Below, piece by piece: positions 1,896 to 48,120 of a stretch of 64,000 nt of DNA. The stretch's first letter is position 1; every line of letters starts with the position of its first letter. The DNA is taken from the NCBI RefSeq assembly GCF_056746865.1, contig NZ_CM163382.1, one strand, 5' to 3'. Position numbers and translations under genes: made by a program. The notes under the pieces were generated by a model. The model saw only the letters and a program-made list of their open reading frames with translations. It did not search any database and was not told the origin of the DNA.

Positions 1896-3299
<1,404 letters not shown>

Positions 3300-3300
<1 letters not shown>

Positions 3301-5020: not shown

Positions 5021-5067
5021 GTTGATGTCCTTTCTGGTGTGAGAACCTTAAGGAAACAACATGTTGG

Positions 5068-5966: not shown

Positions 5967-7919
<1,953 letters not shown>

Positions 7920-9383: not shown

Positions 9384-9422
9384 TTACAAAATTTAAATTA
9401 CACTCTCGTCAGAACATAGCCC

Positions 9423-9917: not shown

Positions 9918-10003
9918 AGGCTCCTGTGCAAAAGGGCTGACTGATCTTACCCAGCAATAGTGGACACAGGACTAAGTGAGTAAACTCTTAACCAGGGTGA
10001 CTC

Positions 10004-10303
10004 ATGACAAAACCAGTATCAATCAGCAAGAAGCCCCGTGAACAACATTCGCCTGAATTTCGTAACGAAGCCCTGAAACTCGCTGAACGCATCGGTGTGG
10101 CCGCCACAGCCCGTGAACTCAGCCTGTATGAATCTCAGCTTTATGCCTGGCGCAGTAAACAGCAGCAACAAATGAGTTCGTCAGAGCGCGAAAGCGAACT
10201 GGCCGCTGAAAATGTCCGCCTTAAACGACAACTGGCGGAGCAGGCTGAGGAACTGGCCATCCTCCAAAAGGCCGCGACATACTTCGCGAAGCGCCTGAAA
10301 TGA
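10004..10303 (+). CDS. IS3 OrfA
   Basis: 99 aa [32 protein letters not shown]..., recognised as IS3 OrfA. Confidence 0.85.
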
Positions 10304-13300
10304 AGTATGTCTTCATCGAAAATCATCGGGCAGAGTTCAGCATCAAAGCGATGTGTCGTGTACTTCGGGTTGCCCGCAGCGGCTGGTATGTCTGGCTCAG
10401 GCGTCGTCACCAGATGAGCCTGCGCCAACAGTTTCGGCTCACCTGCGATGCCGCTGTCCATAAGGCATTCTTTGAGGCAAAGCAGCGATACGGTGCTCCC
10501 CGCCTTGCTGACGAACTGCCGGAGTTCAATATTAAAACCATTGCCGCCAGCCTGCGTCGTCAGGGGCTGCGGGCGAAAGCCAGCCGGAAGTTCAGCCCGG
10601 CCAGCTACCGTGCACATGGCCTGCCCGTATTGGAGAATCTGCTGGAGCAGGACTTCAGCGCCAGCGGCCCGAACCAGAAGTGGGTGGGTGACATCACGTA
10701 CTGTGTGCCCGGAGTTCAGGGCGAGCATAGACGCTCAAATGAACCACGAGTCTGTCTGGAATATTGAACCGGTAACTCACGATGAGAAACCCAACAATCC
10801 CACCGGGTGTGACGGTGGAGAACCTGAGCGGCAGTGACCTGCGGCATGCCCGCAGGGTGATGTAACCCGCTGACAACGGGGATTGAGGCGAGATCACTAA
10901 GCCGAGATGATCCTCAAGGTTAAGTACTGAAAGGCTTAAGAATATGAACCCGTTAATCCGCCTCTGTGGGTTGAAAACGTCACCACGGCCTACGTGATCT
11001 GACAGGCCGTGCAGGAGGAACTGGCAGTGATACGTAAGCACTGCCGGTCGAAGGTGTTTTGACATGTATGCGAAACTCCGGGGCAGCAGCGTCTATCACG
11101 CTCGCGTTGCTGACTTCTGCCAACTTGCGGCAAGCAAGGATAAAGAGTGCGACGGGCAGCCTCCTCAGTATGTCTGAGTCCAGTCAGGCAAACCGGGGAA
11201 GGTCAGCGACGGATGTTAAGGGGGCATGGCTCCGATGACGCGCTGGCTGGCGGAGCTTCCGTAGTAGTCCGCGATGGGGAAAGCCCATTACATGGCGAAG
11301 GGAAGCAGTTTGAATGTGTCTGCGACGTAAATTAACTGACCTAACGAGGTGAAGACCTTTGATAATCAGCGAAATGCAACGCAAGCTTGCCACATGGGCA
11401 GCCACCGATCCGTCCCTACGGATTCAACGGCTGCTGCGTCTGATAACACAACCAGAATGGCTGGCTGAAGCGGCGCGGATCACGCTTTCATCAAAGGGGG
11501 CGAATACCCCCGGTGTTGATGGCGTGAACAAAACAATGCTACAGGCCAGACTGGCTGTTGAGCTGCAAATCCTCAGGGATGAATTACTCTCAGGCCACTA
11601 CCAGCCCTTGCCCGCCAGGCGGGTTTACATCCCTAAAAGCAATGGCAAACTGCGACCACTGGGTATCCCCGCGTTGCGGGATCGTATTGTTCAGCGGGCC
11701 ATGCTGATGGCGATGGAGCCGATATGGGAGAGTGATTTTCATACGCTCTCATATGGCTTCCGGCCTGAGCGCAGTGTCCACCACTCGATCCGCACGGTGA
11801 AATTACAGCTCACCGACTGCGGTGAAACCCGGGGACGCTGGGTGATTGAAGGCGACCTGTCCAGTTACTTCGACACCGTACATCATCGACTGCTGATGAA
11901 GGCTGTACGCCGCAGGATCAGTGACGCACGTTTCATGACTCTGCTGTGGAAAACCATCAAGGCGGGACATATCGATGTCGGTCTCTTTCGGGCGGCCAGT
12001 GAAGGTGTGCCACAGGGCGGTGTTATATCGCCGCTATTGTCGAACATCATGCTGAATGAGTTCGATCAATACCTGCATGAGCGCTACCTGAGCGGGAAAG
12101 CAAGAAAAGATCGGTGGTACTGGAATAACAGTATCCAACGGGGCCGAAGTACGGCGGTCAGAGAAAACTGGCAGTGGAAACCCGCGGTGGCGTACTGCCG
12201 CTATGCCGATGATTTTGTCCTCATCGTCAAAGGCACCAAAGCACAGGCGGAAGCCATCAGGGAGGAGTGTCGGGGTGTGCTCGAAGGCAGTCTGAAACTC
12301 AGGCTGAACATGGATAAGACTAAAATCACCCATGTTAATGACGGCTTTATCTTTCTGGGGCACAGGATCATTCGCAAACGCAGTCGTTATGGCGAGATGC
12401 AAGTGGTCTCAACGATCCCGCTGGAGAAAGCCAGAAACTTCGCCGCATCGCTGACAGCACTGTTATCAGGCAACTACAGTGAAAGCAAAGTCGATATGGC
12501 TGAACAACTCAACCGAAAACTGAAAGGCTGGGCCATGTTCTATCAGTTCGTTGATTTTAAGGCCAAAGTCTTCAGTTATATCGACCGTGTCGTGTTCTAG
12601 AAGCTGGCTCACTGGCTGGCCCGCAAATACCGTACAAGTATCGCTTCCCTGATGAGGTGGTGGTGTAAATCACCGAAACCGGGTCAGAGCAAAACGTGGG
12701 TTTTATTTGGTAAAACCAATCACGGCAAGCTCAGCGGCGAAATACTGTACCGGTTGGTGGGGCAAGGCAAGAAGCTGTTCCGCTGGCGGCTACCCGAAGG
12801 TAATCCCTATCTGAGGACGGAAACCAGAAAGACGTATACATCGCGCTTTACAGAAGTGGCAATGGCGTTCGCCAGCGTTTAAATGGAGAGCCGGATGCGC
12901 TGAAAGGTGCATGTCCGGTTCGGGGAGGAGAGGCAGGGAAATAGTCCGACTACGCCCTGCCTCTTACTCTACTGCGTACCGATGAGGGCTGGTTGTATCT
13001 CACAGTAGTCATCGACCTATGGTCACGCGCCGTCATTGGCTGGTCGATGTCACCGCGAATGACAGCACAACTGGCCTGTGATGCACGGCAAATGGCGTTG
13101 TGGCGGAGAAGACGCCCGGAAAGCGTCATTGCTCATACGGACCGTGGTGGTCAATACTGTTCAGGGGATTATCAGGCGCTGCTGAAGCGACACAACCTGC
13201 GTGGCAGTATGAGTGCGAAAGGCTACTGTTATGACAATGCCTGTGTGGAAAGCTTCTTTCATTCGCTGAAGGTGGAATGTATCCACGGGGAACGCTTTAG

Positions 13301-13424
13301 CAGCCGGGAAATAATGCGGGCAACGGTGTTTAATTATATCGAGTGTGATTACAATCGCTGGCGTCGTCACAGTGCCTGTGGCGGTCTCAGCCCGGAACAA
13401 TTTGAAAACCATAATCTCGCTTAG
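10300..13424 (+). CDS. IS3 OrfB interrupted by group II intron (exon 1 10300-10702, exon 2 12973-13424)
   Basis: Exon 1 ends ...GDITY plus T; exon 2 starts TGCGTACCGATGAG; the ligated junction TAC-TTG-CGT reads YLR and restores the IS3 OrfB frame. Confidence 0.75.
11359..12600 (+). CDS. Group II intron-encoded reverse transcriptase/maturase
   Basis: 413 aa with RT motifs including YADD ([11 protein letters not shown]) and a C-terminal maturase-like region; probably no endonuclease domain given its length. Confidence 0.85.
   Translation: MIISEMQRKLATWAATDPSLRIQRLLRLITQPEWLAEAARITLSSKGANTPGVDGVNKTMLQARLAVELQILRDELLSGHYQPLPARRVYIPKSNGKLRPLGIPALRDRIVQRAMLMAMEPIWESDFHTLSYGFRPERSVHHSIRTVKLQLTDCGETRGRWVIEGDLSSYFDTVHHRLLMKAVRRRISDARFMTLLWKTIKAGHIDVGLFRAASEGVPQGGVISPLLSNIMLNEFDQYLHERYLSGKARKDRWYWNNSIQRGRSTAVRENWQWKPAVAYCRYADDFVLIVKGTKAQAEAIREECRGVLEGSLKLRLNMDKTKITHVNDGFIFLGHRIIRKRSRYGEMQVVSTIPLEKARNFAASLTALLSGNYSESKVDMAEQLNRKLKGWAMFYQFVDFKAKVFSYIDRVVF
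12888..12921 (+). ncRNA. Group II intron domain V
   Basis: GAGCCGGATGCGCTGAAAGGTGCATGTCCGGTTC: AGC triad, GAAA-type loop and complementary arms. Confidence 0.7.
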
Positions 13425-13454
13425 GGCCGTGTCCACATTACGTGGGTAGGATCA

Positions 13455-14280
<826 letters not shown>

Positions 14281-25741: not shown

Positions 25742-26491
25742 TCACTGATCTCCTTCGGTCAACGGAGATTGTATTTTCCGCATTGATTCTCCTTTAAGTT
25801 CGATCTTGATACTGCCATGAACCAGTCGATCTAGGATGGCATCCGCATGTGTGGAGTCTCCGATCATTTTGTACCAGTTTTCCACCGGCAACTGGCTCAC
25901 TACGATGATTGAGCCTCGTTGGTACATCAGATCCACTATTTCCAGCAGGTCGCTACGCTGTTCTGATGAGAGAGGTTCCAGCCCCCAGTCATCCAGAAGC
26001 AGCAGATCGCTATTATTCAGCCTGGTCAAAAGTTTGCTGTATCTTCCATCAGCATGCCCCTGATAGCACTGTTCCATCAGCGCTTTAAGGCGATAATAGT
26101 AGACCTTGTATCCCTGTCGGCAGGCATTATGACCAAGTGCACATGCCAGGAACGTTTTACCGCTGCCGGTGGCCCCGGTCAGTAAAATATTTTGTTTCAG
26201 GGTTAACCAGTTTCCCTGACTGAGTGAACGGATGAGGGCCCTGTCCAGCCCTCTATTGTTACGATAATCCAGCTTTGATAACTCAGCATTAAGTCTGAAC
26301 CGTGCATGTTTGATCAGACGCTCTGCCTTCCTGTTTTCACGGCAGGTTAGTTCTTCTGCTGTCAGTAATGACAGGCGTTCTTCGAAGCCCAGCTCCTGGT
26401 ATGTGCCCGGCTGAGCAAGTTGCTTTTTAAGCGCATCACGGAAGCCGGTGAGTTTAAGTGCGGTCAGTTGTTCGTAAAGATGATTCATCAT
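25742..26491 (-). CDS. istB: IS21-family helper ATPase IstB
   Basis: 249 aa; Walker A GATGSGKTFLA and Walker B LLLLDDWG. Confidence 0.8.
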   Translation of the reverse strand: MMNHLYEQLTALKLTGFRDALKKQLAQPGTYQELGFEERLSLLTAEELTCRENRKAERLIKHARFRLNAELSKLDYRNNRGLDRALIRSLSQGNWLTLKQNILLTGATGSGKTFLACALGHNACRQGYKVYYYRLKALMEQCYQGHADGRYSKLLTRLNNSDLLLLDDWGLEPLSSEQRSDLLEIVDLMYQRGSIIVVSQLPVENWYKMIGDSTHADAILDRLVHGSIKIELKGESMRKIQSPLTEGDQ

Positions 26492-26502
26492 TGGATCCCG
26501 TA

Positions 26503-28044
26503 TCAGTGGTAATACTCACTGCCGCGTACGTTTTCGTGTTCCATCGTGGATAACAGATCTGGTTTTGGATCCTGAACAGGTTGTTTATCCAGACCTTTTT
26601 CCAGGATCGATTTAATACCTGACAGACGCCATACCTTTGTTTTCAGAGCTCTTGCACATGCTGCATTAAGTCTGGCTTTACTGTATTTTTTATGAAGGTT
26701 CAGGAGTCCAAGGCAGAAGCGATAGCTTTGTTCCGGATGTGGACGAGAGTTCAGTATATGAAGCACATAACTATGAGTTTCACTGCCTATGTGCCCCGCC
26801 CATTCCAGAAGACGCTCTGGCGTCCAGGTGGCATGCTGTCGATGAGCTTCAGGCATGTGCTCGTTGCGGGTACTGTAGCCATAAGTACGCTTGCGCGGGT
26901 GCACAGCAACCTCCTGCCCCTGATTGAAGAGTCTTACCAGTTCTCCGGAGATCCATGCTTCCAGTTGCTGGCCTAACAGCGAACATGGAACCGAGTAGTA
27001 ATGTTTGTCGATTTCCACGTGGTAATCGGCATGAACTCTGACTTTCTTCACCAGGGTGTAACTGTAACTGGCTTCAGGAAGAGGCTTCAGTGCGGGTTTA
27101 TCAAGCTGGATGAAGAGTTCTGCACGTGAATAACCCAACTTCTGCATTATTTTGTTATTCAGTCTTTCCAGCAACTCCCGAATGCGCTGATTAAGCGATG
27201 CAAGGCTGTAGAAGATCTCATGCCTGATTCGGGCCATGATCCAGCGTTCAACAACCTGAACGCCAACTTCAGCTTTGGCTTTATCTTTCGGTTTACGTGG
27301 CCGCGCAGGCAAAACTGCGACATTATAATGCTCAAGCATCTGCTGGTAGGTAGGGTTAACGTCAGGATCATACTTACATGCCCTGGATGTGGCGCTTTTC
27401 AGATTGTCCGGAACAACAAGTTCAGGAACGCCACCCAACCACTGGAAGCAGCGAACATGACTCATCACCCAGTCTTCAAGCTGCTGAGACCAGGTGGCCT
27501 CTGCCCATGTGTAACTTGATGCCCCGAGAACAGCTACGATGACCTGAGCAGTTCTTATTTCTCCGGTCTCAGGGTCGGTAACGCCAACGGTAGGTCCACA
27601 GTAATCAACGAAAAGTTTTTCGCCAGCTTTATGTACCTGACGCATTGATGGTGAAGTGGTTTTGAGCCATTCACGGTACATCCGGCAGTAATGGTTATAG
27701 CTGTAAAAACCGCCTGGATTACGCTCACAGTATTCTTCCCAGAGTAGCTGCAGCGTCACGCATTTATTACGCAGTTCCCGGTGTACTGTAGCCCAGTCAG
27801 GCAGAGAGTGCTTCTTCATCTTAACCTGGGTCTGAAGGAACGCATGTTTTAGTTTTGTATCATCCCATCCTGTAGGTAAGGGCCACTGCTTTATGCCAAG
27901 TTGAGCCGCCCGATTAGCATATCTGGATACAACGGAAGGGGAGATTGCAAGACTACGACCAATTTGTCGATGGCTGAGTCCAACACCGTATTTAAGCCTA
28001 AGAATTTCTTTAAGTTTTCTCATAGAAATTGGAACTGTTGGCAT
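26503..28044 (-). CDS. istA: IS21-family transposase IstA
   Basis: 513-aa ORF with N-terminal HTH and IstA-type core. Confidence 0.8.
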   Translation of the reverse strand: MPTVPISMRKLKEILRLKYGVGLSHRQIGRSLAISPSVVSRYANRAAQLGIKQWPLPTGWDDTKLKHAFLQTQVKMKKHSLPDWATVHRELRNKCVTLQLLWEEYCERNPGGFYSYNHYCRMYREWLKTTSPSMRQVHKAGEKLFVDYCGPTVGVTDPETGEIRTAQVIVAVLGASSYTWAEATWSQQLEDWVMSHVRCFQWLGGVPELVVPDNLKSATSRACKYDPDVNPTYQQMLEHYNVAVLPARPRKPKDKAKAEVGVQVVERWIMARIRHEIFYSLASLNQRIRELLERLNNKIMQKLGYSRAELFIQLDKPALKPLPEASYSYTLVKKVRVHADYHVEIDKHYYSVPCSLLGQQLEAWISGELVRLFNQGQEVAVHPRKRTYGYSTRNEHMPEAHRQHATWTPERLLEWAGHIGSETHSYVLHILNSRPHPEQSYRFCLGLLNLHKKYSKARLNAACARALKTKVWRLSGIKSILEKGLDKQPVQDPKPDLLSTMEHENVRGSEYYH

Positions 28045-28233
28045 AGGTATCCTTTACCGGAATGGCAAAAGATACAGATCAACACACCTGTGAAGTTCCA
28101 ATAACATTGATGGAGATCACTGAATAACAAAATGAGTCAAAAGTGATCTCCATCGATGTTATTCAGCGATCTGTTCAAATGTTATCCCCCTGTGTCAGCA
28201 TAGTTGTCGCCTCAATTTTTTAAGGAGATAACA

Positions 28234-28746
28234 ATGCCAGGACAACCAATACCAAGTGAGCTCAAAGAGAAAGGACTGATATGGCTTTTACCACCATACT
28301 GCTGGTCACATCGTCAGATAGCCCGTAAGCTGAAGATCAGTGCCTCAGTTGTATCAAAATGGAGATGTGAGTTAGTGGAGCAAGGACTTTTACCTGAAAA
28401 TGAAAAGATTACCTCCGTTGATGTTGAAGACTGGACACCGGAGCGTCGATTCTCAGTTGTTCTTGAGACGGCTACGCTGTCAGAAATGGAACTTGCTGAT
28501 TATTGCCGACGCACGGGATTGTTTGTTGAACAGGTTAAAGAATGGCGGGCTATCTCAATTCAGGCGCATGAAAAGAAATTGACGGAAAATATCCGAACAG
28601 ACAGGGCATTGCGTGACGCAAAAAATAAGTTACGAGAACTGGAGAAAGAGCTTAAGCGCAAAGATAAAGCTCTGGCGGAAGCAGCTGCCCTGCTTATATT
28701 AAGGGAAAAGTTCAATGCCCTCTGGGACAACAGCGAGGAAGACTGA
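28234..28746 (+). CDS. IS3-family OrfA (copy B)
   Basis: ATG at 28234 preceded by AAGGAG; the track ORF 28204-28746 begins at an upstream TTG. Confidence 0.7.
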   Translation: MPGQPIPSELKEKGLIWLLPPYCWSHRQIARKLKISASVVSKWRCELVEQGLLPENEKITSVDVEDWTPERRFSVVLETATLSEMELADYCRRTGLFVEQVKEWRAISIQAHEKKLTENIRTDRALRDAKNKLRELEKELKRKDKALAEAAALLILREKFNALWDNSEED

Positions 28747-28949
28747 CCCCTCTCCTGGAGCGGCGTAAAATTATTTCTCTTATCCACGAGGCCGTTATCA
28801 ACGGCGCCCGGAAAAGTCAGGCTTGTAGGTGTATCGGTATTTCTGTTCGGACACTTCAGCGCTGGACTAATGGCAAAGTCATCACCACGGACCGAAGATC
28901 CGATACTGTAAACAGATCTCCCCGAAATAAGCTGTCAGAAGCGGAAAGA

Positions 28950-29771
28950 TTGCGGATACTGGAGTTGTGCAACTCTCCAGAGTTTGCATCCTTACCTCCA
29001 AATGTGATCGTACCAACTCTGGCAGACAGGGGTATTTATATTGCTTCTGAATCAAGCTTTTATCGTGTACTGAAATCAGCCAACCAGTTGAAGAAACGAT
29101 CCCGTGAATGTCAGTATAAACGGCCTGATGTACTCAGGGCCGTTGCACCGAATCAAGTCTGGAGTTGGGATATCAGCTATTTGCCGTCCGGGGTCAGAGG
29201 TCAGCATTTTTACCTCTATATGATCGTCGATATTTACAGTCGCAAGATTATTGCTGCAGAGGTATTTGCCAGCGAATCTGGAAAACATGCAGCAGAACTA
29301 CTCCAGCGGGCAATATGGAATGAAAAATGTTCATCCAGCAATCTGGTACTCCATTCTGATAATGGTGCTCCCATGCGCAGTTACACGTTGTTGGCGAAAA
29401 TGTATGCGCTTGGTGTGCTAAGTTCTTATTCCCGGCCAAGAGTCAGCAATGATAATCCTTACTCAGAATCTTTGTTCCGGACTCTCAAATATTGTCCCTG
29501 GTGGCCTGAGAACGGTTTTCGCACTATTAATGATGCCAGAATATGGGTAAACCGTTTTGTAAACTGGTACAACTTTGAACATAAGCACAGCGGGATCAAA
29601 TACGTCACGCCAGCCGAGCGTCATCAAGGTAATGATATGAAAATACTGGCGGCCAGAAAAGCAGTATACCAGCTGGCACGCGAACAGCATCCTGAACGTT
29701 GGGGAAAGCATCTACGTAACTGGGACTACATATCAGAAGTCTACCTGAATCCAGAAAAAGAGGCTGCATAA
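28950..29771 (+). CDS. IS3-family transposase OrfB (copy B)
   Basis: 273 aa, identical to copy A. Confidence 0.75.
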   Translation: MRILELCNSPEFASLPPNVIVPTLADRGIYIASESSFYRVLKSANQLKKRSRECQYKRPDVLRAVAPNQVWSWDISYLPSGVRGQHFYLYMIVDIYSRKIIAAEVFASESGKHAAELLQRAIWNEKCSSSNLVLHSDNGAPMRSYTLLAKMYALGVLSSYSRPRVSNDNPYSESLFRTLKYCPWWPENGFRTINDARIWVNRFVNWYNFEHKHSGIKYVTPAERHQGNDMKILAARKAVYQLAREQHPERWGKHLRNWDYISEVYLNPEKEAA

Positions 29772-29836
29772 CGTAATTTTATTACAAAAGGCGACAACTA
29801 CCTTGAAAAACGCCGTTATTGAGTGATCTCCTTTCA

Positions 29837-30415
29837 TGAAAATACGCATACGCCGCGCAGTACCCGCTCTCTGAAGCGCAGATACCTCCCCTTATCAATG
29901 AGATGTCCCATATGGAGGTAAACCGGTTTACCGTCCAGCATTTCTTTTTCAAATTCGAACAGGTTTGATATGACCTGTCTGATGACATCTTCTGTAACCC
30001 AGTTAAGGAAAACTTTCCCTGCCCGTGGCGTTTTTTTACCGGTTCTTCCTCCCAGACGAACCTGCCAGAACTCCTGCGGCTGACGCTGCCAGGCAAGGGT
30101 GGGACATGCCAGAACACATTCTCCGCATCCGATACAGAGCGACTCTTCCTTTGTGGCTTTGCCGTTCTTTAATGACAGGCACCCCACGGCGTGGTGCGCA
30201 CAGGCTTTCACACAGGCGCCACATCCGATGCAACGTTCTGCCGTAAAACGCATTCTGGCCACACCAATAATGCCAAAGTCTGACATGGAGGCTTTGGCAC
30301 AGTCATTCGGACACCCGGCAATGACGGTTTTCAGGTGATAGGCGCTGGGATAAATCAGCTTTTCCAGCCGCCGGGATAAACCTGTGGTGTCGGTATTGGC
30401 TTTCTGGCAAATCCG
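29837..30415 (-). pseudogene. asrC: Anaerobic sulfite reductase subunit C remnant (asrC), 5' part deleted, 3' end cut by IS3-family insertion
   Basis: ...[21 protein letters not shown]...CPNDCAKASMSDFGIIGVARMRF...CIGCGACVKAC...CIGCGECVLACP; the stop codon is the TGA formed by the IS terminus. Confidence 0.55.
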
Positions 30416-31035
30416 GTTACTATCGCCTGCATGGTGCTGATATCTTCAAATGTCAGTGCTGCCAGATGGTCAGTGACCCGCCCGGTACGGTAACGTTCAT
30501 CCGCCTCGCCTTCATCCAGGGTCAGAATGAGATTGTGGTGCCGGTGCCAGTTCGCCATCTCCTGCCTGTACAGCACACATTCCCGGTTTCTGTAACCAAA
30601 AATTATGTCAAGCTGGTTGATTTCCTGCGGGTTTTCGACGAAATAGCGCATTAACCCTTTGACTGGCGCAACGCCAGTACCGCCGGCAATGACCACCAGA
30701 GATTTGTGGCGGAAGGCATCAACAGGATAGCCGTTACCATAACAGCCACGAAGCCATACCCTGTCGCCTTCACGGAGGGTAAAAAGCGCGCCGGTCACTT
30801 TGCCGACATTGCGGATAAGCAGGTCTGCCCAGCCCTCTCCGCAGTCAGAAACAGAAATGGGCGCCTCCCCGACACATGGCAGGGAGACTTCGACAAACTG
30901 TCCCCAGCGAGCCGGAAAATCGATTTCCACACGGAAATTCCACTCCTGTGGTGTATGACGGGTGATGGAAATAATGCGGTATGCAGCAGGCAAAAGGCTG
31001 TGCTTTTCTTTATCGTGACAGGAACACGTTGACAC
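30355..31035 (-). pseudogene. asrB: Anaerobic sulfite reductase subunit B remnant (asrB), C-terminal Fe-S region lost
   Basis: [32 protein letters not shown]... flavoprotein domain; after ...MQAIV the frame leaves AsrB and the asrC frame begins, consistent with a deletion joining asrB to mid-asrC. Confidence 0.55.
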
Positions 31036-31038
31036 AGG

Positions 31039-31922
31039 TTATGCCTCCCCGGAGAGTGCCTGCCGGACAGCGGCAGTCATTTTATTGATAATACGTGAGA
31101 ATTTAATGTACTGAGGACAACGGTCATCGCAGCGTCCGCAGCCCACGCACATATGCTCAGTACCATTGCGGGCTTTGTAATCATTGACTTTATGAAGTGC
31201 ACGGTAACGTAAACGTTCTCCCGCAGACTGGCGAAAACGGTGTCCGCCGGCCATATCGCTGAAACCCGGTACCATACAGCTGGCCCACTGGCGACGGCGT
31301 TCACCGCGCTGAGGATTTTCGTCATAAGCCACATCAAAAACGCTGTAGCAGGTACAGGTCGGACACCCGGTTGTGCAGCGCCCGCAACCAATACAGCGAC
31401 TGTTGTACTCATCCCAGAGCGGATGATTGATAATAATGTCGCGAACTTTTTGGGGGGACTGACAGATTTTTTCAGGGAGGGTAACCTGCTCCAGGTTTTC
31501 GCTGACGAAGACAGGCTCATATTCCGTGCTCTGTCCCATTCCCTGTAAGGCTTCTTCAAAAAAAGCATCCCTGATAAAAACACTGGCACCGTCATCACTG
31601 AAACGCATTGCCGCGCTGTAATTATCGGTTTTATTGCTCCCCATGGAGACACAGAAGCAGTTTTCAAAACTTTGCGGACACTCAATCAGCACAAAGCGAA
31701 TATGGTCGCGCAGTCGCTGATAACTGTAATCAGAATTATTCCCGTTTGATAAATACATATAATCCAGCCGCGACATGGCATTAATGTCACAGGCGCGGGC
31801 AAATATCAGTACTGGTGTGGTATCCGTCTCCGCAATCTGGATAGTGTCTTTATTAAAATAAAAGAGCGTCTCTGTTATTGGTGAAATAACCGTACTAGGT
31901 GACATGTGGGATTTCTCCTGCC
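31039..31922 (-). pseudogene. asrA: Anaerobic sulfite reductase subunit A (asrA), 5' end cut by IS2
   Basis: Two 4Fe-4S ferredoxin motifs ([26 protein letters not shown]); the N-terminal extension of ORF 31039-31959 is IS2 terminus read-through. Confidence 0.6.
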
Positions 31923-31933
31923 TGGATTTGCCC

Positions 31934-32839
31934 CTATATTTCCAGACATCTGTTATCACTTAACCCATTACTGGTCCGCTGCCGCAGATATTCCCGTGGC
32001 GAGCGATAACCCAGCGCACTATGCGGATGCCATTCGTTATAATGCTCGAACGCCTCTGCAAGGTTCTTTGCTGCCGTTAACCCGTCTGGTTTGGGCATGA
32101 TACTGATGTAGTCACGCTTTATCGTTTTCACGAAGCTCTCTGCTATTCCGTTACTCTCCGGACTCCGCACCGCCGTGTTCTTCGGTTCAAGTCCCAACAT
32201 CCGGGCGAACTGGCGTGTTTCATTAGCCCGGTAGCATGAACCATTATCCGTCAGCCACTCCACTGGAGACGACGGAAGATCGTTGCCGAAGCGGCGTTCC
32301 ACCGCTCCTGGCATGACGTCCTGTACTGTTTCACTGTTGAAGCCGCCGGTAGTGACCGCCCAGTGCAGTGCCTCACGATCACAGCAGTCCAGCGCGAACG
32401 TGACACGCAGTCTCTCTCCGTTATCACAGCAGAACTCGAACCCGTCAGAGCACCATCGCTGATTGCTTTCTTTCACGGCCACTCTGCCAGTATGTGCCCG
32501 TTTCGATGGCGGTACAGCGGTTTTTCGCTCAAGCAACAGCGCATTCTGGCGCATGATCCGGTAAACACGTTTGGCATTGATCGCAGGCATACCATCAAGT
32601 TCGGCCTGTCTGCGAAGCAGCGCCCATACCCGACGATAACCATACGTGGGCAGCTCTCCGATAACATGGTGTATACGGAGAAGCACATCCGTATCATCTG
32701 AGTGACGGCTGCGGCGACCATCTTTCCAGTCATCGGTTCGTCTGAGAATTACGTGCAACTGCGCACGCGACACCCGGAGACAACGGCTGACTAAGCTTAC
32801 TCCCCATCCCCGGGCAATAAGGGCGCGTGCGCTATCCAC
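31934..32839 (-). CDS. insD: IS2 OrfB (InsD)
   Basis: 301 aa [30 protein letters not shown]... Confidence 0.85.
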
Positions 32840-33207
32840 TTTTTTGCACGCCCGTATTCAACGGCTTCTTTAAGGAGTTCATTTTCCATCGTTTTTTTGC
32901 CGAGCAGGCGCTGGAGTTCTTTAATCTGCTTCATGGCAGCAGCAAGTTCAGAGGCAGGAACGACCTGCTCTCCTGCGGCCACAGCAGTAAGACTTCCCTC
33001 CTGGTATTGCTTGCGCCAGAGAAATAACTGGCTGGCTGCCACACCGTGTTGCCGGGCAACAAGGGAGACCGTCATTCCCGGTTCAAAACTCTGCTGAACA
33101 ATAGCGATCTTTTCCTGTGTAGTACGCCGTCTGCGTTTCTCCGGTCCTAAGACATCAATCATCTGCTCTCCAATGACTAGTCTAAAAACTAGTATTAAGA
33201 CTATCAC
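32797..33207 (-). CDS. insC: IS2 OrfA (InsC)
   Basis: 136 aa [47 protein letters not shown]... Confidence 0.85.
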
Positions 33208-33413
33208 TTATTTAAGTGATATTGGTTGTCTGGAGATTCATGGGGCCAGTCTAGCAGATTATGGTGCGCAGTTATACAACAGCAGTAATGAGGAGTCTAC
33301 TATTTCTCTTGTTATGCCAGATGCAATTGAATGGAACGGAAAGAATACGCCAAGACGGCAATACATGATAAAATATATTGCCGTATTTAAATATTAAAAT
33401 TTATTTTTGTAGA

Positions 33414-39019: not shown

Positions 39020-42000
39020 TGGCTGCACATCATGAAGTGCATTTTGAACAATATATTACCGAGCAGTTGGTGAACAATGGCTGGAAAGAAGGCCATTCCT
39101 GCCACTATGACCAGCAACGCGCCCTTTACCCGCAAGATGTCATGGATTGGGTAAAGGCCACCCAGCCAGATGCCTGGCACAAACTGAATAAACTGCATGG
39201 TGTGAATGCCGAGCAGGTGCTGTTGGAGCGTTTGGAAAAAGCCCTCTCTTCCCACAAAGCTGGCAGTAAAACAGGTGGCACCATTAATGTGCTGCGTAAA
39301 GGCTTTACCATTGCAGGTTGCGGCACGATTGCCATGGGCCAACGCAAACCCGAAGATGCGCGCAATGAAGAGCGTATAGCCCGTTATGAGCACAACATTT
39401 TGCGCGTGGTGCGCCAACTGAAATATTGCCCGACTCGCGAGTGGGAAATTGACTTGGTGTTCTTTATCAACGGTCTACCCGTTGCCACCGCCGAGCTAAA
39501 AACCGATTTTACCCAGTCGCTAGAATCGGCGATTGCGCAGTACAAAGAGGATCGTCTGCCCGTTGACCCAAAAACCAAGCGTAAAGAGCCGCTGTTAACC
39601 TTTAAACGCGGTGCAGTGGTACATTTTGCCATGTCTGATACAGAAATCGCCATGGCGACCAAACTGGCGGGAGAAAATACCTATTTTCTGCCCTTCAATA
39701 AAGGCCATGATGGTTCTACCTCTGATTTGCCCGTACACATCAACTTGCCGGGTGAAGATGGAGAGTATCCGGTCAGCTATTTTTGGCAAGAAATTGCCCA
39801 AAAAGATAATTGGCTACGCATTTTCTACAGCTTTGTGTATGTCGAAACCAAAGAGGTTGCCGATAGCAATGGCAAGGTTGAGCGTAAGGAAACACAGATT
39901 TTTCCGCGTTATCATCAGTTAGCCGCAGTCAACAAGATGATTGATGATGCCCGCCAGAACGGCGCAGGCATGCAGTATCTTTGTGAGCACAGCGCCGGTT
40001 CGGGAAAAACCTCTACCATAGCCTGGACGGCCCATGATTTGATTCGTTTACGCAGCACCGATGGTAAAGCGGTCTTTAAATCAGTGATCATTGTGACCGA
40101 CCGCACCGTGCTGGATTCGCAGTTGCAAGATGCGGTGCAACAGCTGGATCATCAATATGGGGTGATTAAGGTGATTGATCGCGAAAAGAGCAGCGAGTCG
40201 AAATCAAAACAGCTGACTGAAGCGCTATTGACTGGCACGCCGATCATTGTAGTGACGATTCAAACCTTCCCATATGCGTTAGAAGCGATTCTGACCAATC
40301 AATCTTTGGCACAAAGTAACTTTGCGGTGATCATCGATGAAGCACACACCTCGCAAACAGGCTCTACAGCCAAAGGGTTACGCGCAGCGCTTACTCTAAA
40401 CCTTAGCCCTCAAGAGTTGGAGCAAATGAGCATTGAGGACATTCTTACTAAGGTGCAAGAAGCGCGCGCCATGCCCAAGAACGTTTCGCACTTTGCTTTT
40501 ACGGCAACACCCAAGCACAGCACCAAGATGTTGTTTGGCCGCCCGAAAGACCCTAACCAACCAGTGTCAGATGACAATCTTCCTGAATCGTTCCACCTCT
40601 ACACCCAACGTCAGGCCATTGATGAGGGTTTTATTCTTGATGTGCTGGAGAATTACACCCACTACGATACAGCCTACAAAATTGGTGAGAACAATCTGGA
40701 TGAGAAGCGCGTAGACAGCAAACAAGCTCGCCGCGCGTTGGCGCGCTGGATGTCACTGCACCCAACCACGGTCAGCCAAAAAGTCGAATTTATTATTAAG
40801 CACTTCAAGGCCAATATCGCTCACCTACTGGAAGGTGAAGCCAAAGCCATGGTGGTCACATCGGGCAGGCCACAGGCGGTGAAATACAAGCTTGCTTTTG
40901 ATAAATACATTAAAAAGCATGGTATTGAAGGTATCCAAGCCTTGGTTGCCTTCTCGGGCAAAGTCCCCGGCAAAGATTTGGGTGATGAAGACAGCCAAGA
41001 CCCGCTAGAAATTGATTTCGATAAAGAGTACACCGAGTACAACTTAAACCCAGACACGCACGGGGCTGACCTGCGCCATGAGTTTGAGAAAACCGAATAT
41101 CGCGTCATGTTAGTCGCCAACAAGTTCCAAACGGGCTTTAATCAACCAAAACTGGTTGCCATGTATTTGGATAAGAAAATATCCGATGTAGAAGCGGTGC
41201 AAACGCTGTCTCGCCTAAACCGCACCTATCCAGGCAAAGACACAACCTTCGTGATTGATTTTGTTAACGATCCACAAACCATTCTCAATGCGTTCAAAAA
41301 GTACGACAAAGGCGCGCAGCTTAATGAAGTGCAAGATGTGAACGTCATCTATGACATCAAAGATATTTTGGATGAACAGAACATATACAACCATCAAGAT
41401 TTAGAGTTGTTTAAGCAAGCGCGTGGTAAATCGATTCTCGGCCAATCACCTGACAAAAAGTCACACGCGCACAAGAAACTGCTAGCTGCCACACAACGCC
41501 CTACCGATGTGTTCAACGTTAAGCTCAAAGAGCTGGTTGATGCTGCAAACCATTGGGATCAGCAATACAACAAAGCGCACCTTGCGGGTGATGAAAAAGC
41601 GGCGAACTACGCAGAATCTCAGCGCAGTGATTTCACCAAGCAGCGCGAAGCACTAATGCGTTTTAAGTCAGATTTAGCTCGATTTGTGAAGCACTATAGC
41701 TATATGAACCGCCCCGGGTTTCCTGGAGAGTGTTTTATCTGTGAACTCAGGCTGCCAGATCATCGTTTCCGATGGAAGCATAATAAGCTTTTTCTGCTTC
41801 TGCCGGAGGAGTATGGCCCAGCCTTCCCAGCAATCGTCGATTGTTATACCAGTCCACCCACGTTAGTGTGGCCAGTTCCACTTCTGCACGGTTTTTCCAG
41901 CTCTTACGGTGTATTACCTCCGCTTTGTAAAGACCATTGATGCTCTCAGCCATCGCGTTGTCATACGAGTCGCCTGTACTCCCTGTTGATGCCAGTAATC

Positions 42001-43568
42001 CGGCTTCTTTTAGTCGCTCCGTATAGGCCAGTGACACATACTGAGAGCCTTTATCGCTGTGATGGATGGTGCCAGACGGACGACGGGCCCACAACGCCTG
42101 CTCCAGCGCATCCAGCACGAATGTCGTTTCCATAGACGATGAGACCCGCCACCCCACGATGTATCCGGCAAACACATCAATGATAAACGCCACATAGACG
42201 AAGCCCTGCCATGTGCTGACGTAAGTAAAATCAGCCACCCACAGCTGGTCAGGTCGTTCTGCCACGAACTGACGGTTTACGCGGTCGCCTGCGGCAACGG
42301 CTTTCCGGCTGATGGTCGTACGGACCTTTTTACCCCGGAGAACACCGGCAAGTCCCATAACCGCCATGAGACGTGCCACTGTACATCTGGCCACCCTGAT
42401 TCCTTCCCGTAACAACTGACGCCAGACTTTACGCACACCGTACACCTGATGATTTTCATCGTATACGCGCTGTATCTCTCTCTTCAGCCAGTCGTCGTGC
42501 TGCGCACGGGCACTGCGTTTATCCGGATGATGTCGCTGTTGCTGACAATGGTAATACGTTGACGGGGCAATATGCAGTTCGCTGCATACCGGTCCGACCC
42601 CGTACTGCTCACGCAGCTTATCCAGCAGTGGCATCATTTTTTCCAGAGGCGGTCGAACTCCGCCTTCGCAAAATAAGCGGAAGCCTGGCGAAGGATATCG
42701 TTACTGCGGCGCAGTTCACGATTTTCACGTTCCAGCTCTTTCAGACGCTGACGTTCAGCGCTGGTGAGCCCACCATCACCGCCCCCGGTATCCCGCTCAT
42801 GCTGGCGAACCCAGACACGCAGAGTCTCCGGCGTACAGCCAATCTTTGGGGCAATGGAACAAATTGCCGCCCACTGTGAGTCATATTCATCCTGACTTTC
42901 CAGAACCATACGAATCGCCCGCTGACGGACTTCGGGGGAAAAACGAGTATTTTTAGTCATCCTGTTTACCTCTTTCTCAGGGAGTTTAGTCTCCAGGATT
43001 TCCGGGGCGGTTCAATATGGCGCAATTGATTGAGTTTGGTGATCCTGAACTGGAAAACTTTGCCGCGTTTGCTCATTTGCTATCACGTCGATTGAAAGGG
43101 GTAACACCAGAAAACATCGATCTCAGTGCACTGGTACTAGAAAAATTCAAAATCAAATACGACAAAGAGCCGCTTCCAGAAGCGTTTAATCAGGTACTTG
43201 AACCTATCCGCCCCAACTATAACGACCCTGCGGATCGTGAACAGGCATTTCTTGCCGATATCATTCGCCGCCTAAACGAACTGTTTGGCGATGTCGGCGA
43301 CGAACCCGGTCGCCGAAACTTTGCCAACGGTACTATTACGCGTGTCACCCAAAATCCAATTGTGGTTGAGCAGATAGAAAAGCACGACAAGTCGATTGCC
43401 CTCAAAGGCGACTTGCCGCAAGCGGTGAAGCAAGCCGTTGTGCAGGCTCTGCTGAAAGAAGGTGATATAGCCCGAACGCTACTCAAAGACCCACAAGTTA
43501 TGGCAAGTTATGTTGAGTTGATTTTTGACATGATGAAGCAAGGTGCAGAACAGGCGGCGGTGAAATAA
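39019..43568 (+). pseudogene. hsdR: Type I restriction enzyme R subunit HsdR, split by IS629 (insert 41705-43014)
   Basis: Helicase motifs (SAGSGKTS, DEAH-box-like IIDEAH); the frame is continuous across the insertion once IS629 and one ATA duplication are removed. Confidence 0.8.
41705..43014 (-). mobile_element. IS629, copy 1 (1310 bp), 3-bp target duplication ATA
   Basis: Ends TGAACCGCCCCGGGTTTCC... and ...GGTTCA; OrfA 42634-42960 and OrfB 41747-42637 match IS629 from memory. Confidence 0.9.
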
Positions 43569-44984: not shown

Positions 44985-47347
44985 ATGAAGGTTGATTCAA
45001 TGGCCGATAACATCCCACAAGCTCCTCAAGGTGAGTTTGTTCTTTTCACCAGTGCTGATGGTCAAACCCGCGTTGAGTGTCGTTTTGAGTCTGACACCTT
45101 GTGGCTTTCTCAGGCTGCAATGGCAGAGCTTTATCAAGTTAGCTCTCAAGCAATCACCCAACACGTAAAAGCTGTCTATTCTGAAGAAGAGCTTGAGCAA
45201 ATTTCAACTTGTAAGGATTACTTACAAGTTCAACTGGAAGGTGGCAGAGAAGTAAAGCGAAGCATTCGTCACTACAGTCTTCCGGTTATTCTTGCAGTAG
45301 GATACCGAGTTCGCTCAACACGTGGCACCCAGTTCCGCCAATGGGCAACCAGAATGTTGCAAGTGAACCGCCCCGGGTTTCCTGGAGAGTGTTTTATCTG
45401 TGAACTCAGGCTGCCAGATCATCGTTTCCGATGGAAGCATAATAAGCTTTTTCTGCTTCTGCCGGAGGAGTATGGCCCAGCCTTCCCAGCAATCGTCGAT
45501 TGTTATACCAGTCCACCCACGTTAGTGTGGCCAGTTCCACTTCTGCACGGTTTTTCCAGCTCTTACGGTGTATTACCTCCGCTTTGTAAAGACCATTGAT
45601 GCTCTCAGCCATCGCGTTGTCATACGAGTCGCCTGTACTCCCTGTTGATGCCAGTAATCCGGCTTCTTTTAGTCGCTCCGTATAGGCCAGTGACACATAC
45701 TGAGAGCCTTTATCGCTGTGATGGATGGTGCCAGACGGACGACGGGCCCACAACGCCTGCTCCAGCGCATCCAGCACGAATGTCGTTTCCATAGACGATG
45801 AGACCCGCCACCCCACGATGTATCCGGCAAACACATCAATGATAAACGCCACATAGACGAAGCCCTGCCATGTGCTGACGTAAGTAAAATCAGCCACCCA
45901 CAGCTGGTCAGGTCGTTCTGCCACGAACTGACGGTTTACGCGGTCGCCTGCGGCAACGGCTTTCCGGCTGATGGTCGTACGGACCTTTTTACCCCGGAGA
46001 ACACCGGCAAGTCCCATAACCGCCATGAGACGTGCCACTGTACATCTGGCCACCCTGATTCCTTCCCGTAACAACTGACGCCAGACTTTACGCACACCGT
46101 ACACCTGATGATTTTCATCGTATACGCGCTGTATCTCTCTCTTCAGCCAGTCGTCGTGCTGCGCACGGGCACTGCGTTTATCCGGATGATGTCGCTGTTG
46201 CTGACAATGGTAATACGTTGACGGGGCAATATGCAGTTCGCTGCATACCGGTCCGACCCCGTACTGCTCACGCAGCTTATCCAGCAGTGGCATCATTTTT
46301 TCCAGAGGCGGTCGAACTCCGCCTTCGCAAAATAAGCGGAAGCCTGGCGAAGGATATCGTTACTGCGGCGCAGTTCACGATTTTCACGTTCCAGCTCTTT
46401 CAGACGCTGACGTTCAGCGCTGGTGAGCCCACCATCACCGCCCCCGGTATCCCGCTCATGCTGGCGAACCCAGACACGCAGAGTCTCCGGCGTACAGCCA
46501 ATCTTTGGGGCAATGGAACAAATTGCCGCCCACTGTGAGTCATATTCATCCTGACTTTCCAGAACCATACGAATCGCCCGCTGACGGACTTCGGGGGAAA
46601 AACGAGTATTTTTAGTCATCCTGTTTACCTCTTTCTCAGGGAGTTTAGTCTCCAGGATTTCCGGGGCGGTTCAAAGAATACCTAATCAAAGGATTCGTCA
46701 TGGATGACGAGCGCCTGAAAAATCCGCCCATTGGCCATTCTGCTGTGCCAGATTACTTTGATGAAATGCTGGAACGCATTCGTGATATCCGAGCTAGTGA
46801 GCGTCGCGTTTATCTGCGAGTCAAAGAAATCTTTACCATGGCTGCTGATTACGAGCCATCTAACCAAGAGACCAACCGCTTCTTCCAAACCATTCAGAAT
46901 AAGCTGCATTATGCTTGTACGCATATGACGGCTGCTGAGCTTATCGCCAGCCGTGTGGATGCCAGTAAGCCGGATATGGGCTTAACCAGCTATAAAGGCG
47001 ATGAAGTGCGCAAGACAGACGTTACTGTTGCCAAGAACTATTTGCGTGAAGACGAAATCAAAGAGCTTAATCGCATCGTCAATATGTGGCTCGACTTTGC
47101 TGAAGACCAAGCACTGCGTCGCAAGCAGGTATTTTTACAGGACTGGGCCGATAAGCTTGACCAGTTCTTGAGTTTTAACGATAGAGATGTATTAAACGGT
47201 GCAGGAAAAATCTCCAAGAAAGACGCTGATGACAAAGCGAAATTGGAGTTTGACCGCTTTGCCCAGCAGCGCCGTCGTTTAAAAGAAGCCGAAGGCGCAC
47301 GGGCCAATATCGCAGCCCTCAAGGCCATACTAAAAAAAGATAAATAG
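44985..47347 (+). pseudogene. rhuM: RhuM-family protein, split by IS629 (insert 45364-46673)
   Basis: N-terminal part ...YSLPVILAVGYRVRSTRGTQFRQWATRMLQ; frame continues after the IS once one AAG duplication is removed. Confidence 0.65.
45364..46673 (-). mobile_element. IS629, copy 2 (1310 bp), 3-bp target duplication AAG
   Basis: ORF products identical to copy 1; same orientation. Confidence 0.9.
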
Positions 47348-47404: not shown

Positions 47405-48120
47405 CTATAAAGGATTATCCATCTTAAAATCGTCGATATCGCCTGTCATTTTGAATAGATTGGTGTCATTCCAACGGCACAGTTGTCTAACCCGCATTAG
47501 ATTTGAGTTGGCTCTGCGGATTATTGAGAAAGCATCTTCAACAGCAGTAATCACCGATTTTTCCCAATCTTGTGCTCGGGTAAAGGTGCTTTGTGAATAG
47601 CGATAATTGCCCTCACGGGGGAGGTAATGGCTGATCACCTGGTATTTGTCAGAATTCTTTTTAGGTTTAAACTCGTTGTAAACCCAGAAAATTTCGAGTT
47701 TTTTGTTTCTTTGCCTTACACGACAACCAAAATGACCTGGGTAGCCTTCAGAGTTTTTACCTCTATGTGCAACGTTGTTCAGCCAGAACAAGTCTGCAAT
47801 TTTTTGTGCTATGTAGAAGTAGCGGAGCTGTTCTATTTCGGTTGATTTATGGGTGTAGTGTAGATATTGCTCTGATATGGTTAAGGAAAAAGCATTGCGT
47901 CGTCTTGATTAACATTTGTGCTATTGACAATAAAGGTTTCCCAAATATTAATTTGTGTTTCTAGTCCTTTAAATGATTTTGAGAAGGCTTCTATGTACTC
48001 AGATTGCGGTTGATTTCCCCCATTTAGTGCTGCACCAAATGTAGCTATCTGTTGTTCTAAAAATGAATGATTTTTGGTCATTACATAATCCTCTGTGTGG
48101 TTGATACTGCGTATTTTCAT
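47405..48120 (-). pseudogene. Hypothetical protein, apparently frameshifted
   Basis: Two consecutive minus-strand ORFs (47881-48120 and 47405-47791) with a short gap; no family recognised. Confidence 0.3.

Follow-up and report, generated by a model that had tools for sequence, protein, structure and literature searches.

The identity of the asr genes and their boundaries

Can a set of anaerobic sulfite reductase genes that is hemmed in by insertion sequences (ISs) on both sides still encode an enzyme, and if it cannot, how did it come to be broken? The question is raised by a short region on contig NZ_CM163382.1 (assembly GCF_056746865.1), of which a stretch of 64,000 nucleotides (the window) was analysed. 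In Salmonella enterica, asrABC encodes an anaerobic NADH-linked siroheme sulfite reductase that forms H2S from sulfite. The function of the Salmonella operon has been described, and H2S production through asrABC is considered a hallmark of Salmonella that aids it in competition with E. coli (PMC12452934). What the window contains is almost certainly the defunct remainder of an asrABC operon for an anaerobic siroheme-type sulfite reductase, an accessory module acquired by horizontal transfer and situated in an IS-rich mosaic island of E. coli (Table 1).

The genes lie on the minus strand in the order asrA-asrB-asrC, colinear with five inspected intact loci, and their products match the NCBIfam equivalog models TIGR02910 (AsrA), TIGR02911 (AsrB) and TIGR02912 (AsrC) with E-values of 5.9e-145, 2.2e-88 and 4e-88, which rule out chance. 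These models and the DNA identity to E. coli asrABC agree with the first-pass annotation, which had read the region as an asrABC operon bounded by ISs; an IS2 on the asrA side and an IS3-family terminus on the asrC side were indeed found. The interval 29837-31922 that it had proposed needs trimming at one end, as asr sequence begins at 29849 and the last 12 nt (29837-29848) are derived from the IS. Gene order and matching models are shared with Salmonella, and the AsrA fragment shares 82% identity with the AsrA cluster of Salmonella over its whole length; with that of E. coli the figure is 97%. In contrast to the Salmonella operon, which resides in the core chromosome, the window copy is an E. 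coli-type allele of the kind carried on mobile islands and plasmids, and it is truncated at both ends and deleted internally, such that it could not encode the enzyme.

Table 1. Features of the asr region and the neighbouring insertion sequences (positions in the window)
Feature	Position	Strand	Remarks
asr remnant (whole)	29849-31922	-	96.9-97.6% DNA identity to intact E. coli asrA-asrB-asrC
asrA remnant	31039..31922	-	Codon 54 position 2 to native TAA stop; TIGR02910 match
asrB remnant	30422..31035	-	GTG start; codons 1-204 plus 2 nt; TIGR02911 match
Deletion junction and out-of-frame asrB tail	30355..30421	-	Unmatched A at 30421; 19 codons of asrC DNA to TGA
asrC remnant	29849..30420	-	Codon 117 position 2 to codon 307 (of 336); TIGR02912 match below cut-off
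asrC frame closure	29834..29848	-	Four sense codons (C V F S) and TGA, all from the IS3-family terminal inverted repeat
IS2, complete, 1331 bp	31923..33253	-	NF006918 transposase match and IS2 ends
IS3-family copy B, unnamed	28186..29848	+	NF033516 match; asrC-side end intact
ISEc12 (IS21 family)	25675..28185	-	Between inverted copies A and B; bounds from coverage in hundreds of genomes
IS3-family copy A	23999..25661	-	Inverted duplicate of copy B, identical over 1663 nt
IS3-family copy C	48108..49824	+	About 96% identical to B; left repeat intact, right end degenerate

Three lesions in one operon

The first lesion is found in asrA. Compared with the intact locus of strain MSI001 (L002), homology begins at window position 31922, which corresponds to asrA nt 161; the first 160 nt are missing together with the upstream region of the operon. 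The remainder is well preserved, with 97.6% DNA identity to L002 10001-11501, a score of 482.7 bits against TIGR02910 (cut-off 323.15; profile positions 55-333 of 334), all 16 cysteines and, in translation, no internal stop. It adjoins the right end of an IS2 whose transposase genes are oriented as asr. IS2 is recognised by a length of 1331 bp, terminal repeats, an InsD-type transposase and, upon simple insertion, a 5-bp target duplication. The transposase here scored 712.5 bits against NF006918 (cut-off 597) and the ends read TGGATTTGCCCCTA... and ...GGGGCCAGTCTA, but no 5-bp duplication is present at this IS2, its flanks being CTGCC and GCAGA, which indicates a secondary rearrangement rather than a different element. 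In strain 1517k the same IS2 lies beside other DNA and homology likewise stops exactly at 31923, while in other strains the IS1-cytochrome b562-IS2 cassette adjoins unrelated DNA. From the missing duplication and the cassette's changing neighbours we infer either an IS2 insertion with an adjacent deletion or recombination between two IS2 copies; such an IS2-associated event would have taken asrA codons 1-54 together with the promoter region.

The second lesion joins asrB to asrC. The AsrB fragment passes the TIGR02911 cut-off (295.7 against 288.6 bits; profile positions 1-197 of 261), and its C-terminal 68 residues are deleted along with Cys240, Cys245, Cys248 and Cys256, presumed to form an Fe-S motif. 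Position 30422 of the window corresponds to 11501 of L002 and position 30420 to 12066, with the A at 30421 unmatched. Thus, a single nucleotide stands in place of 564 bp; the net loss of 563 bp shifts the frame, so that codon 204 of asrB is followed, out of frame, by codon 117 of asrC. Translation of asrB gives ...STMQAIV and continues through 19 out-of-frame codons to a stop, which makes a fusion ORF of 226 aa at 30355-31035. Alignment with six intact alleles revealed a 2-nt GT microhomology at the junction and neither long direct repeats nor an IS. A deletion by illegitimate recombination at this microhomology produced the fusion and took with it the N-terminal third of AsrC, the catalytic subunit.

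The third lesion removed the end of asrC. The AsrC fragment, at 295.4 bits, stays under the TIGR02912 cut-off of 324.1 (profile positions 115-300 of 314) because it is truncated: the next-best family reaches 34 bits, and at the DNA level the fragment shares 96.9% identity with full-length asrC (L002 12066-12637). Residues 1-117, including Cys93 and Cys115, and the last 29 residues are absent. Of the CX5C motif C115-QGNRI-C121, Cys115 is gone; C121, C153 and C157 are kept. By homology, the CX5C...CX3C arrangement is taken to bind a siroheme-[4Fe-4S] centre, and AsrC residues 110-303 align with the sulfite reductase domain of the solved F420-dependent sulfite reductase 7np8. The bases beyond asrC, TGCGTATTTTCATGA..., belong to an IS3-family terminal inverted repeat that ends at 29848. 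The identical terminus, TGCGTATTTTCATGAAAGGAGATCAC..., closes copy A on its outer side (23999) and copy C on its left (48108), and it recurs in a related IS of strain 24A16CRGN010; since the bases following asrC match these other ends, the TGA at 29834-29836 lies inside the IS. An IS3-family-associated event, leaving no target duplication, would have removed the last 29 asrC codons and everything downstream.

All three breakpoints had been described in outline by the first-pass annotation: asrA without its 5' end next to an IS2 at 31923, asrB running into the middle of asrC after ...MQAIV with loss of the AsrB Fe-S tail and the AsrC N-terminus, and an asrC stop at 29834-29836 supplied by the IS. 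Each is borne out by the alignments, the last by three further IS ends with the same terminus. None of the missing pieces (5' end of asrA, 564 bp of the deletion, 3' end of asrC) is present elsewhere in the window. With its cofactor-binding motifs incomplete, the locus is a remnant of the family and not a functional member of it. The sequence predicts that no sulfite reductase can be produced from the retained parts and that activity is nil, and no observation conflicts with reading the locus as a pseudogene.

The surrounding island

IS3-family elements, to which the IS on the asrC side probably belongs, are recognised by an NF033516 transposase, TG...CA termini with inverted repeats and a 3-bp target duplication. 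The transposase of copy B scored 169.8 bits against NF033516 (cut-off 160), and its asrC-side terminus reads ...ATACGCA; the ends were compared with those of copy C and of the IS in locus L012. The first 34 nt of copy B, comprising the left repeat, have been replaced by ISEc12, whereas in draft assembly L018 copy B keeps this repeat and ISEc12 is absent. No target duplication surrounds the block formed by copy A, ISEc12 and copy B.

Copies B and C are direct repeats that bracket an 18.3-kb segment in which the asr remnant is found together with IS2, cytochrome b562, IS1, RelB, a type I restriction-modification system, RhuM and mobI. In near-identical genomes the island sits at the tRNA-Sec gene (selC). 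Four genomes nearly identical to the window (CM2, EC332, AR13438 and GCA_974490305) each depart from it in the ISs present or in the direction of ISEc12.

Distribution of broken and intact asrABC

The same broken locus occurs in three of 5,426 complete E. coli genomes, CM2, EC332 and AR13438, and these are also the only genomes in that set with matches of at least 99% identity. RefSeq annotates partial asrA, asrB and asrC pseudogenes in all three, flanked by IS2 and an IS3-family transposase. This is ordinary gene decay, and public annotation has marked it as such. Since these independent complete genomes agree, it is unlikely that the junctions are artefacts of assembly. The locus was also found in dozens of draft assemblies; public assemblies have its exact ORFs on 34, 38 and 51 contigs. 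For the asrB fusion ORF, 69 blocks are indexed; ten inspected places share the set of asr ORFs and, wherever the contig extends far enough, the IS2 and IS3-family flanks as well. Every inspected carrier (the three complete genomes and ten of at least 25 contigs) has the asrB-asrC deletion, and both IS junctions are present wherever the contig reaches them.

Whether other strains of the lineage have intact asr genes had been proposed as a check on the annotation. In the species such genes do exist, in other contexts. Uninterrupted asrABC is carried by at least 47 of the 5,426 complete genomes (about 1%) in tRNA-associated islands or on plasmids, such as the chromosomal islands of MSI001, SCU-308 and STEC309 and the plasmids pSE11-3 and JNU p1. 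Besides the three carriers of the broken locus, 50 complete genomes contain most of asrABC at approximately 95-97% identity, and five inspected loci are annotated as intact. The intact copies resemble the window copy over all retained parts (95-97.4% DNA identity) and are likewise cargo of IS-rich islands or plasmids, in several loci with an ECs1377-family gene upstream of asrA. They differ from it in having complete genes of 347, 272 and 336-338 aa, where the window copy lacks asrA codons 1-54, asrB codons 205-272 and asrC codons 1-117 and 308-336. In the same island context, none of the 5,426 complete genomes has an intact asr. The nearest intact allele, at 97.4% identity, lies in a different island, and the relatives of the island in strains XDL and 1517k are without the broken locus entirely.

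Other broken copies have their own histories. In 24A16CRGN010, asrB is interrupted by an IS3-family element flanked by a 3-bp target duplication and the rest of the operon is intact, whereas the window copy has three lesions, other breakpoints and no target duplications. The idea that the same IS disrupted asrB in 24A16CRGN010 was rejected, as the two elements, at 76% identity, are related yet distinct. TUM9757, LR778147 and several plasmids carry partial asr remnants that were broken independently in island DNA by ISs or deletion.

History of the lesions

The retained codons have not decayed further. Measured against intact alleles, the remnant has a pN/pS of 0.075-0.114, compared with 0.055-0.127 among the intact alleles themselves, and there are nine private substitutions (seven synonymous) and no internal stops. 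Neither pN/pS nor the private substitutions gave a signal of relaxed selection on the remnant. Because the retained codons show no extra decay, inactivation is recent relative to the divergence of the alleles. At least three separate structural events, in whatever order, are needed. The set of lesions arose before the compared carriers diverged and was then inherited unchanged, while the surrounding ISs kept rearranging the island.

The first-pass annotation had seen in this a stepwise loss of an anaerobic respiration trait. The multiple steps stand. The trait does not, as asr is rare accessory cargo in about 1% of genomes rather than a character of the species or lineage. Moreover, with no relative having an intact copy in the same context, the locus may have arrived broken. 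The IS-bounded 18-kb segment would then have been imported with its asr genes already disrupted and recombined via an IS3-family copy, and no stepwise decay within the lineage would be involved. We regard this as a serious possibility that falls somewhat short of being probable. The direct repeats B and C that bracket the segment are in line with it, and strain XDL has the same island minus exactly the interval between them; a later deletion by recombination between B and C, however, explains XDL equally well. Strain 1517k, where most of the segment lies at tRNA-Phe but asr is missing, the mostly plasmid-borne occurrence of the cytochrome b562 cassette and the lack of any genome with intact asr in this context (the nearest intact allele being in another island) also speak for import. 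The 3-nt flanks at the left end of C and the right end of B agree (TAC), although such a match is expected by chance once in 64. Against import, the same island contains, at a distance of 18 kb (49877-50584), a diverged homologue (90.7%) of the gene usually found just upstream of asrA; this fits an asr neighbourhood scrambled in place. If the import is true it changes the history of the remnant but not its identity.

Far less probable is a residual use of the truncated AsrA. In this proposal, read-through from IS2 would yield a product of 288 aa that starts at an internal ATG (31905), keeps every Fe-S cysteine and works on its own in the manner of a ferredoxin. Genes downstream of an IS2 so oriented can be activated by it. 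The IS2 transposase runs in the same direction with a stop 12 nt from the IS end and the asrA frame is intact with 16 cysteines and no internal stops, so that the fragment may be transcribed and even translated; many assemblies list the 288-aa product as a protein. Set against these points, a consensus promoter scan of the minus strand over 29700-32100 found no promoter-like site, no activity is known for AsrA without AsrB and AsrC, and PGAP flags the asrA fragment as a pseudogene. The low pN/pS reflects the period before breakage, as the clearly dead asrB and asrC fragments show the same. We therefore consider this use very improbable.

That the three ORFs belong to another Fe-S oxidoreductase family with native ends (a sulfhydrogenase, HydB/HydG-like or PyrK-like), the opposing case named at the outset, has next to no probability, since the secondary matches, to the beta and gamma subunits of sulfhydrogenase and the electron-transfer subunit of dihydroorotate dehydrogenase, are weak (80-110 bits, where the cut-offs are 224-750) beside the 295-483 bits of the Asr equivalogs, and the 97% DNA identity to full-length asrABC stops abruptly at the IS termini and the deletion junction.

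Implications for asrABC in E. coli

The remnant of asrABC, whichever way it reached its present site, is a case of ISs eroding cargo genes in the pathogenicity-type islands of E. coli, and by itself adds little beyond bookkeeping. Its exact breakpoints could serve as markers of a lineage or island, as identical junctions recur in dozens of assemblies. A targeted full-text search of the literature returned nothing specific on mobile asr genes in E. coli islands or plasmids, or on asr pseudogenes. The wider setting is that about 1% of complete E. coli genomes have an apparently intact mobile asrABC and others have broken ones, despite the view of these genes as a Salmonella hallmark. The E. coli operon, with an AsrA of approximately 82% amino-acid identity to that of Salmonella, is carried on F-type and other plasmids and in tRNA-associated islands. 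We suggest, tentatively and with the balance still leaning against it, that E. coli has its own mobile asrABC lineage, which possibly makes some strains sulfite-reducing producers of H2S and which has been lost repeatedly through IS activity. The locus studied here, widespread across dozens of assemblies, would then be one fixed example of such loss, and a mobile asrABC of this kind, if true, would run against the textbook distinction between Salmonella and E. coli.

Gene Identity of the asr Remnant

Three consecutive open frames on the minus strand correspond to the three NCBIfam equivalog models of anaerobic sulfite reductase: TIGR02910 for the AsrA fragment (482.7 bits, curated cut-off 323.15, profile positions 55-333 of 334), TIGR02911 for AsrB (295.7 bits, cut-off 288.6, positions 1-197 of 261) and TIGR02912 for AsrC (295.4 bits, cut-off 324.1, positions 115-300 of 314). 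From the incomplete profile coverage, AsrA is cut N-terminally, AsrB C-terminally and AsrC at both ends. The remnant is flanked by IS2 (NF006918, 712.5 bits) beside asrA and by an IS3-family transposase (NF033516, 169.8 bits) beside asrC. The first-pass annotation had named these frames asrABC and described them as an IS-bounded wreck hit several times; the models, together with alignment to intact E. coli asrABC, confirm the naming, and breakpoints at the IS2 end, between asrB and asrC, and at the IS3-family end bear out the description. The AsrA fragment shares 97% identity with the E. coli AsrA cluster versus 82% with the Salmonella cluster. Judged by its sequence, the allele is E. coli-type and mobile rather than newly imported from Salmonella.

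Coordinates of the asr remnant and surrounding features in the window
Feature	Position	Remarks
Three asr open frames	29834-31959	minus strand
asr-derived DNA	29849-31922
Alignment block 1	31922-30422	MSI001 locus 10001-11501, 97.6% identity
Alignment block 2	30420-29849	MSI001 locus 12066-12637, 96.9% identity
Unmatched A	30421	at internal deletion
Stop of AsrB frame	30355-30357
Stop of asrC	29834-29836	TGA
IS2	31923-33253	complete, 1331 bp
IS3-family copy A	23999-25661	outer end at 23999
IS3-family copy B	28186-29848
IS3-family copy C	48108-49824	left end at 48108; ~96% identical, direct repeat of B
ISEc12	25675-28185	between inverted copies A and B
Inverted 13 nt of ISEc12 end	25662-25674
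TAC flanks	48105-48107, 29849-29851
Cytochrome b562 gene segment	33254-34200	between IS1 and IS2
IS1203/IS629-type copies	41705-43020, 45364-46675	3-bp duplications ATA and AAG
ECs1377-family gene	49877-50584	IS-bounded
CM2-like segment	1-5287	amiC, IS110/IS21 genes
Unmatched segment	5288-13520

Three Breakpoints

The alignment reference was the intact locus of E. coli strain MSI001 (asrA 9841-10884, asrB 10888-11706, asrC 11717-12727). Against it, asrA is missing the leading 160 nt (residues 1-54) along with all upstream DNA, and the IS2 end TGGATTTGCCCCTATATTTCC adjoins the cut gene. There is no 5-bp target duplication around IS2, whose flanks CTGCC and GCAGA differ. In strain 1517k, whose island lacks the wreck, the same IS1-cytochrome b562-IS2 cassette leads into raffinose-type genes, and the match to the window stops exactly at 31923. 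This endpoint and the missing duplication mark the IS2-asrA junction as secondary. It would have arisen by an adjacent deletion or by recombination between IS2 copies rather than by simple insertion. That a truncated AsrA, expressed through read-through from IS2, would keep residual function is very unlikely and has no support.

The internal lesion removed positions 11502-12065 of the MSI001 locus and left a single unmatched A, a net loss of 563 bp. All six intact alleles carry GCGATTGTTG to its left and CCA(G/A)GGTAACC to its right; compared with them, a GT dinucleotide is the only sequence shared at the junction, which points to illegitimate recombination rather than an IS or repeat event. 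The AsrB frame keeps residues 1-204, regains Ile205 and Val206 by chance, and then runs through 19 out-of-frame codons to a stop. Deleted are AsrB residues 205-272, with all four C-terminal cysteines (C240, C245, C248, C256), and AsrC residues 1-117, including Cys93 and Cys115, the latter being the first cysteine of C115-QGNRI-C121. By homology to other sulfite/nitrite reductases, the AsrB cysteines are a predicted [2Fe-2S] motif and the AsrC CX5C motif a predicted siroheme-[4Fe-4S] ligand set. The sulfite reductase domain of the F420-dependent sulfite reductase 7np8, a solved structure, aligns to AsrC residues 110-303.

At the far end, asrC homology breaks off at codon 307 of 336 (29849) and is followed directly by TGCGTATTTTCATGAAAGGAGATCACTCAATAAC, the terminal repeat of an IS3-family element. 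The identical 34 nt also close copy A on its outer side and stand at the left ends of copy C and of a related IS from strain 24A16CRGN010. Since this terminus occurs at three other IS ends, the closing Cys-Val-Phe-Ser and TGA come from the IS, as had been proposed for the asrC stop.

Age of the Lesions

The 2061 retained in-frame nucleotides contain no stops or frameshifts. Against six intact alleles the remnant gives a pN/pS of 0.075-0.114, inside the range among the intact alleles themselves (0.055-0.127), and seven of its nine private substitutions are synonymous. Inactivation is thus recent relative to allele divergence. The asrB-asrC deletion is found in every carrier examined, and both IS junctions wherever the contig reaches, so the lesions are older than the divergence of those carriers.

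Island Context

In strain CM2 the island spans at least 60 kb, beginning at tRNA-Sec (selC) with an integrase, and the remnant lies ~30 kb into it. The island's cargo comprises tia, a phosphoethanolamine transferase, nanXY, a type I restriction system, iha and conjugative-element fragments, besides more than 20 IS genes or fragments, many frameshifted. The window is nearly colinear with it, and its strain represents a fourth variant of the wreck-bearing island. Two IS1203/IS629-type insertions, one in hsdR and one in a RhuM-family gene, are absent from CM2, EC332 and AR13438 and represent further decay in this strain. One segment matching the CM2 island (1-5287) is oriented opposite to the rest of the window, and the next (5288-13520) matches nothing in the CM2 segments compared; the two strains therefore differ by at least one further rearrangement.

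Copies A and B are 100% identical over 1663 nt, and in both the 34-nt left repeat is missing from the same nucleotide, that of copy B being replaced by ISEc12. Thirteen nucleotides of one ISEc12 end (ATAACATTTGAAC) recur inverted beside copy A. The ISEc12 segment is reversed in AR13438, XDL and GCA_974490305 and so behaves as invertible. One draft assembly has copy B with its left repeat intact and lacks ISEc12, which dates the ISEc12 event after the truncation of asrC.

The 18.3 kb between copies B and C hold the asr remnant, IS2, cytochrome b562, IS1, RelB, a type I R-M system, RhuM and mobI. The island also occurs in strain XDL, with exactly this interval missing; XDL represents either final loss of the wreck by recombination between B and C or the state preceding insertion of the segment. 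The TAC at both flanks could be a target duplication or chance (1 in 64). The asr segment may have come into the island already broken, which we consider possible, if somewhat doubtful.

The cytochrome b562 cassette past IS2 is mostly plasmid-borne (250 plasmid versus 20 chromosomal places). Its gene segment has a 99-100% identical match in 138 complete E. coli genomes, chiefly on large plasmids of avian and extraintestinal strains. The DNA across IS2 from the cytochrome gene varies by strain: asrA in the window, raffinose-type genes in 1517k, an MFS transporter gene in TUM9803. The ECs1377-family gene, 18 kb from the remnant and inverted relative to it, shares 90.7% identity with the gene that directly precedes asrA in MSI001, SCU-308 and 24A16CRGN010; it could be left over from the original surroundings of asr, or a paralogue unrelated to them.

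Distribution Among Genomes

Searched with the asr part alone, 66 of 5,426 complete E. coli genomes gave a match. The identical wreck (99.9-100% across all 2074 nt) occurs in three: CM2 (chicken, China), EC332 (chicken meat, Vietnam) and AR13438 (human ascites, China), where RefSeq lists asrA, asrB and asrC as partial pseudogenes, with IS2 and an IS3-family transposase bordering them. Fifty further genomes carry most of the operon at ~95-97.4% identity, uninterrupted in at least 47 (~1% of complete E. coli genomes). All five loci examined among these are annotated as intact asrABC; they are carried by islands with neighbouring tRNA genes and integrases, or by plasmids such as pSE11-3 and an IncFII-type plasmid. 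The remaining matches include independent wrecks, namely one IS3-family insertion in asrB and several shorter remnants. That insertion is in 24A16CRGN010 (NZ_CM148325.1), where a related 1746-bp IS3-family element (9158-10903 of the extracted locus) splits asrB of an otherwise intact asrABC; it is 76% identical to that of the window, with a nearly identical left terminal repeat and a clean 3-bp target duplication. It is a second, independent IS strike on the operon.

In a collection of 15 billion proteins, the exact 226-aa AsrB fusion product is found on 34 contigs, the 150-aa AsrC fragment on 38 and the 288-aa AsrA fragment on 51. The index lists the fusion ORF in 69 blocks, most of them contigs of 2-5 kb; the 10 matches listed show the same asr ORF set, with the same IS2/IS3-family flanks where the contig is long enough.

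What Was Lost

In Salmonella, asrABC converts sulfite to H2S and, with phsABC, aids competition against E. coli, which is described as H2S-negative (PMC12452934). Our literature search found no paper on the presence of asrABC in islands or plasmids of E. coli, or on its decay. The genes receive routine annotation all the same, and the finding is an ordinary one that public annotation already contains. The remnant had been read as stepwise loss of an anaerobic respiration trait. At least three events are required, but the available genomes do not give their order, and the operon is no lineage trait: asrABC in E. coli is rare accessory cargo, present in ~1% of complete genomes.
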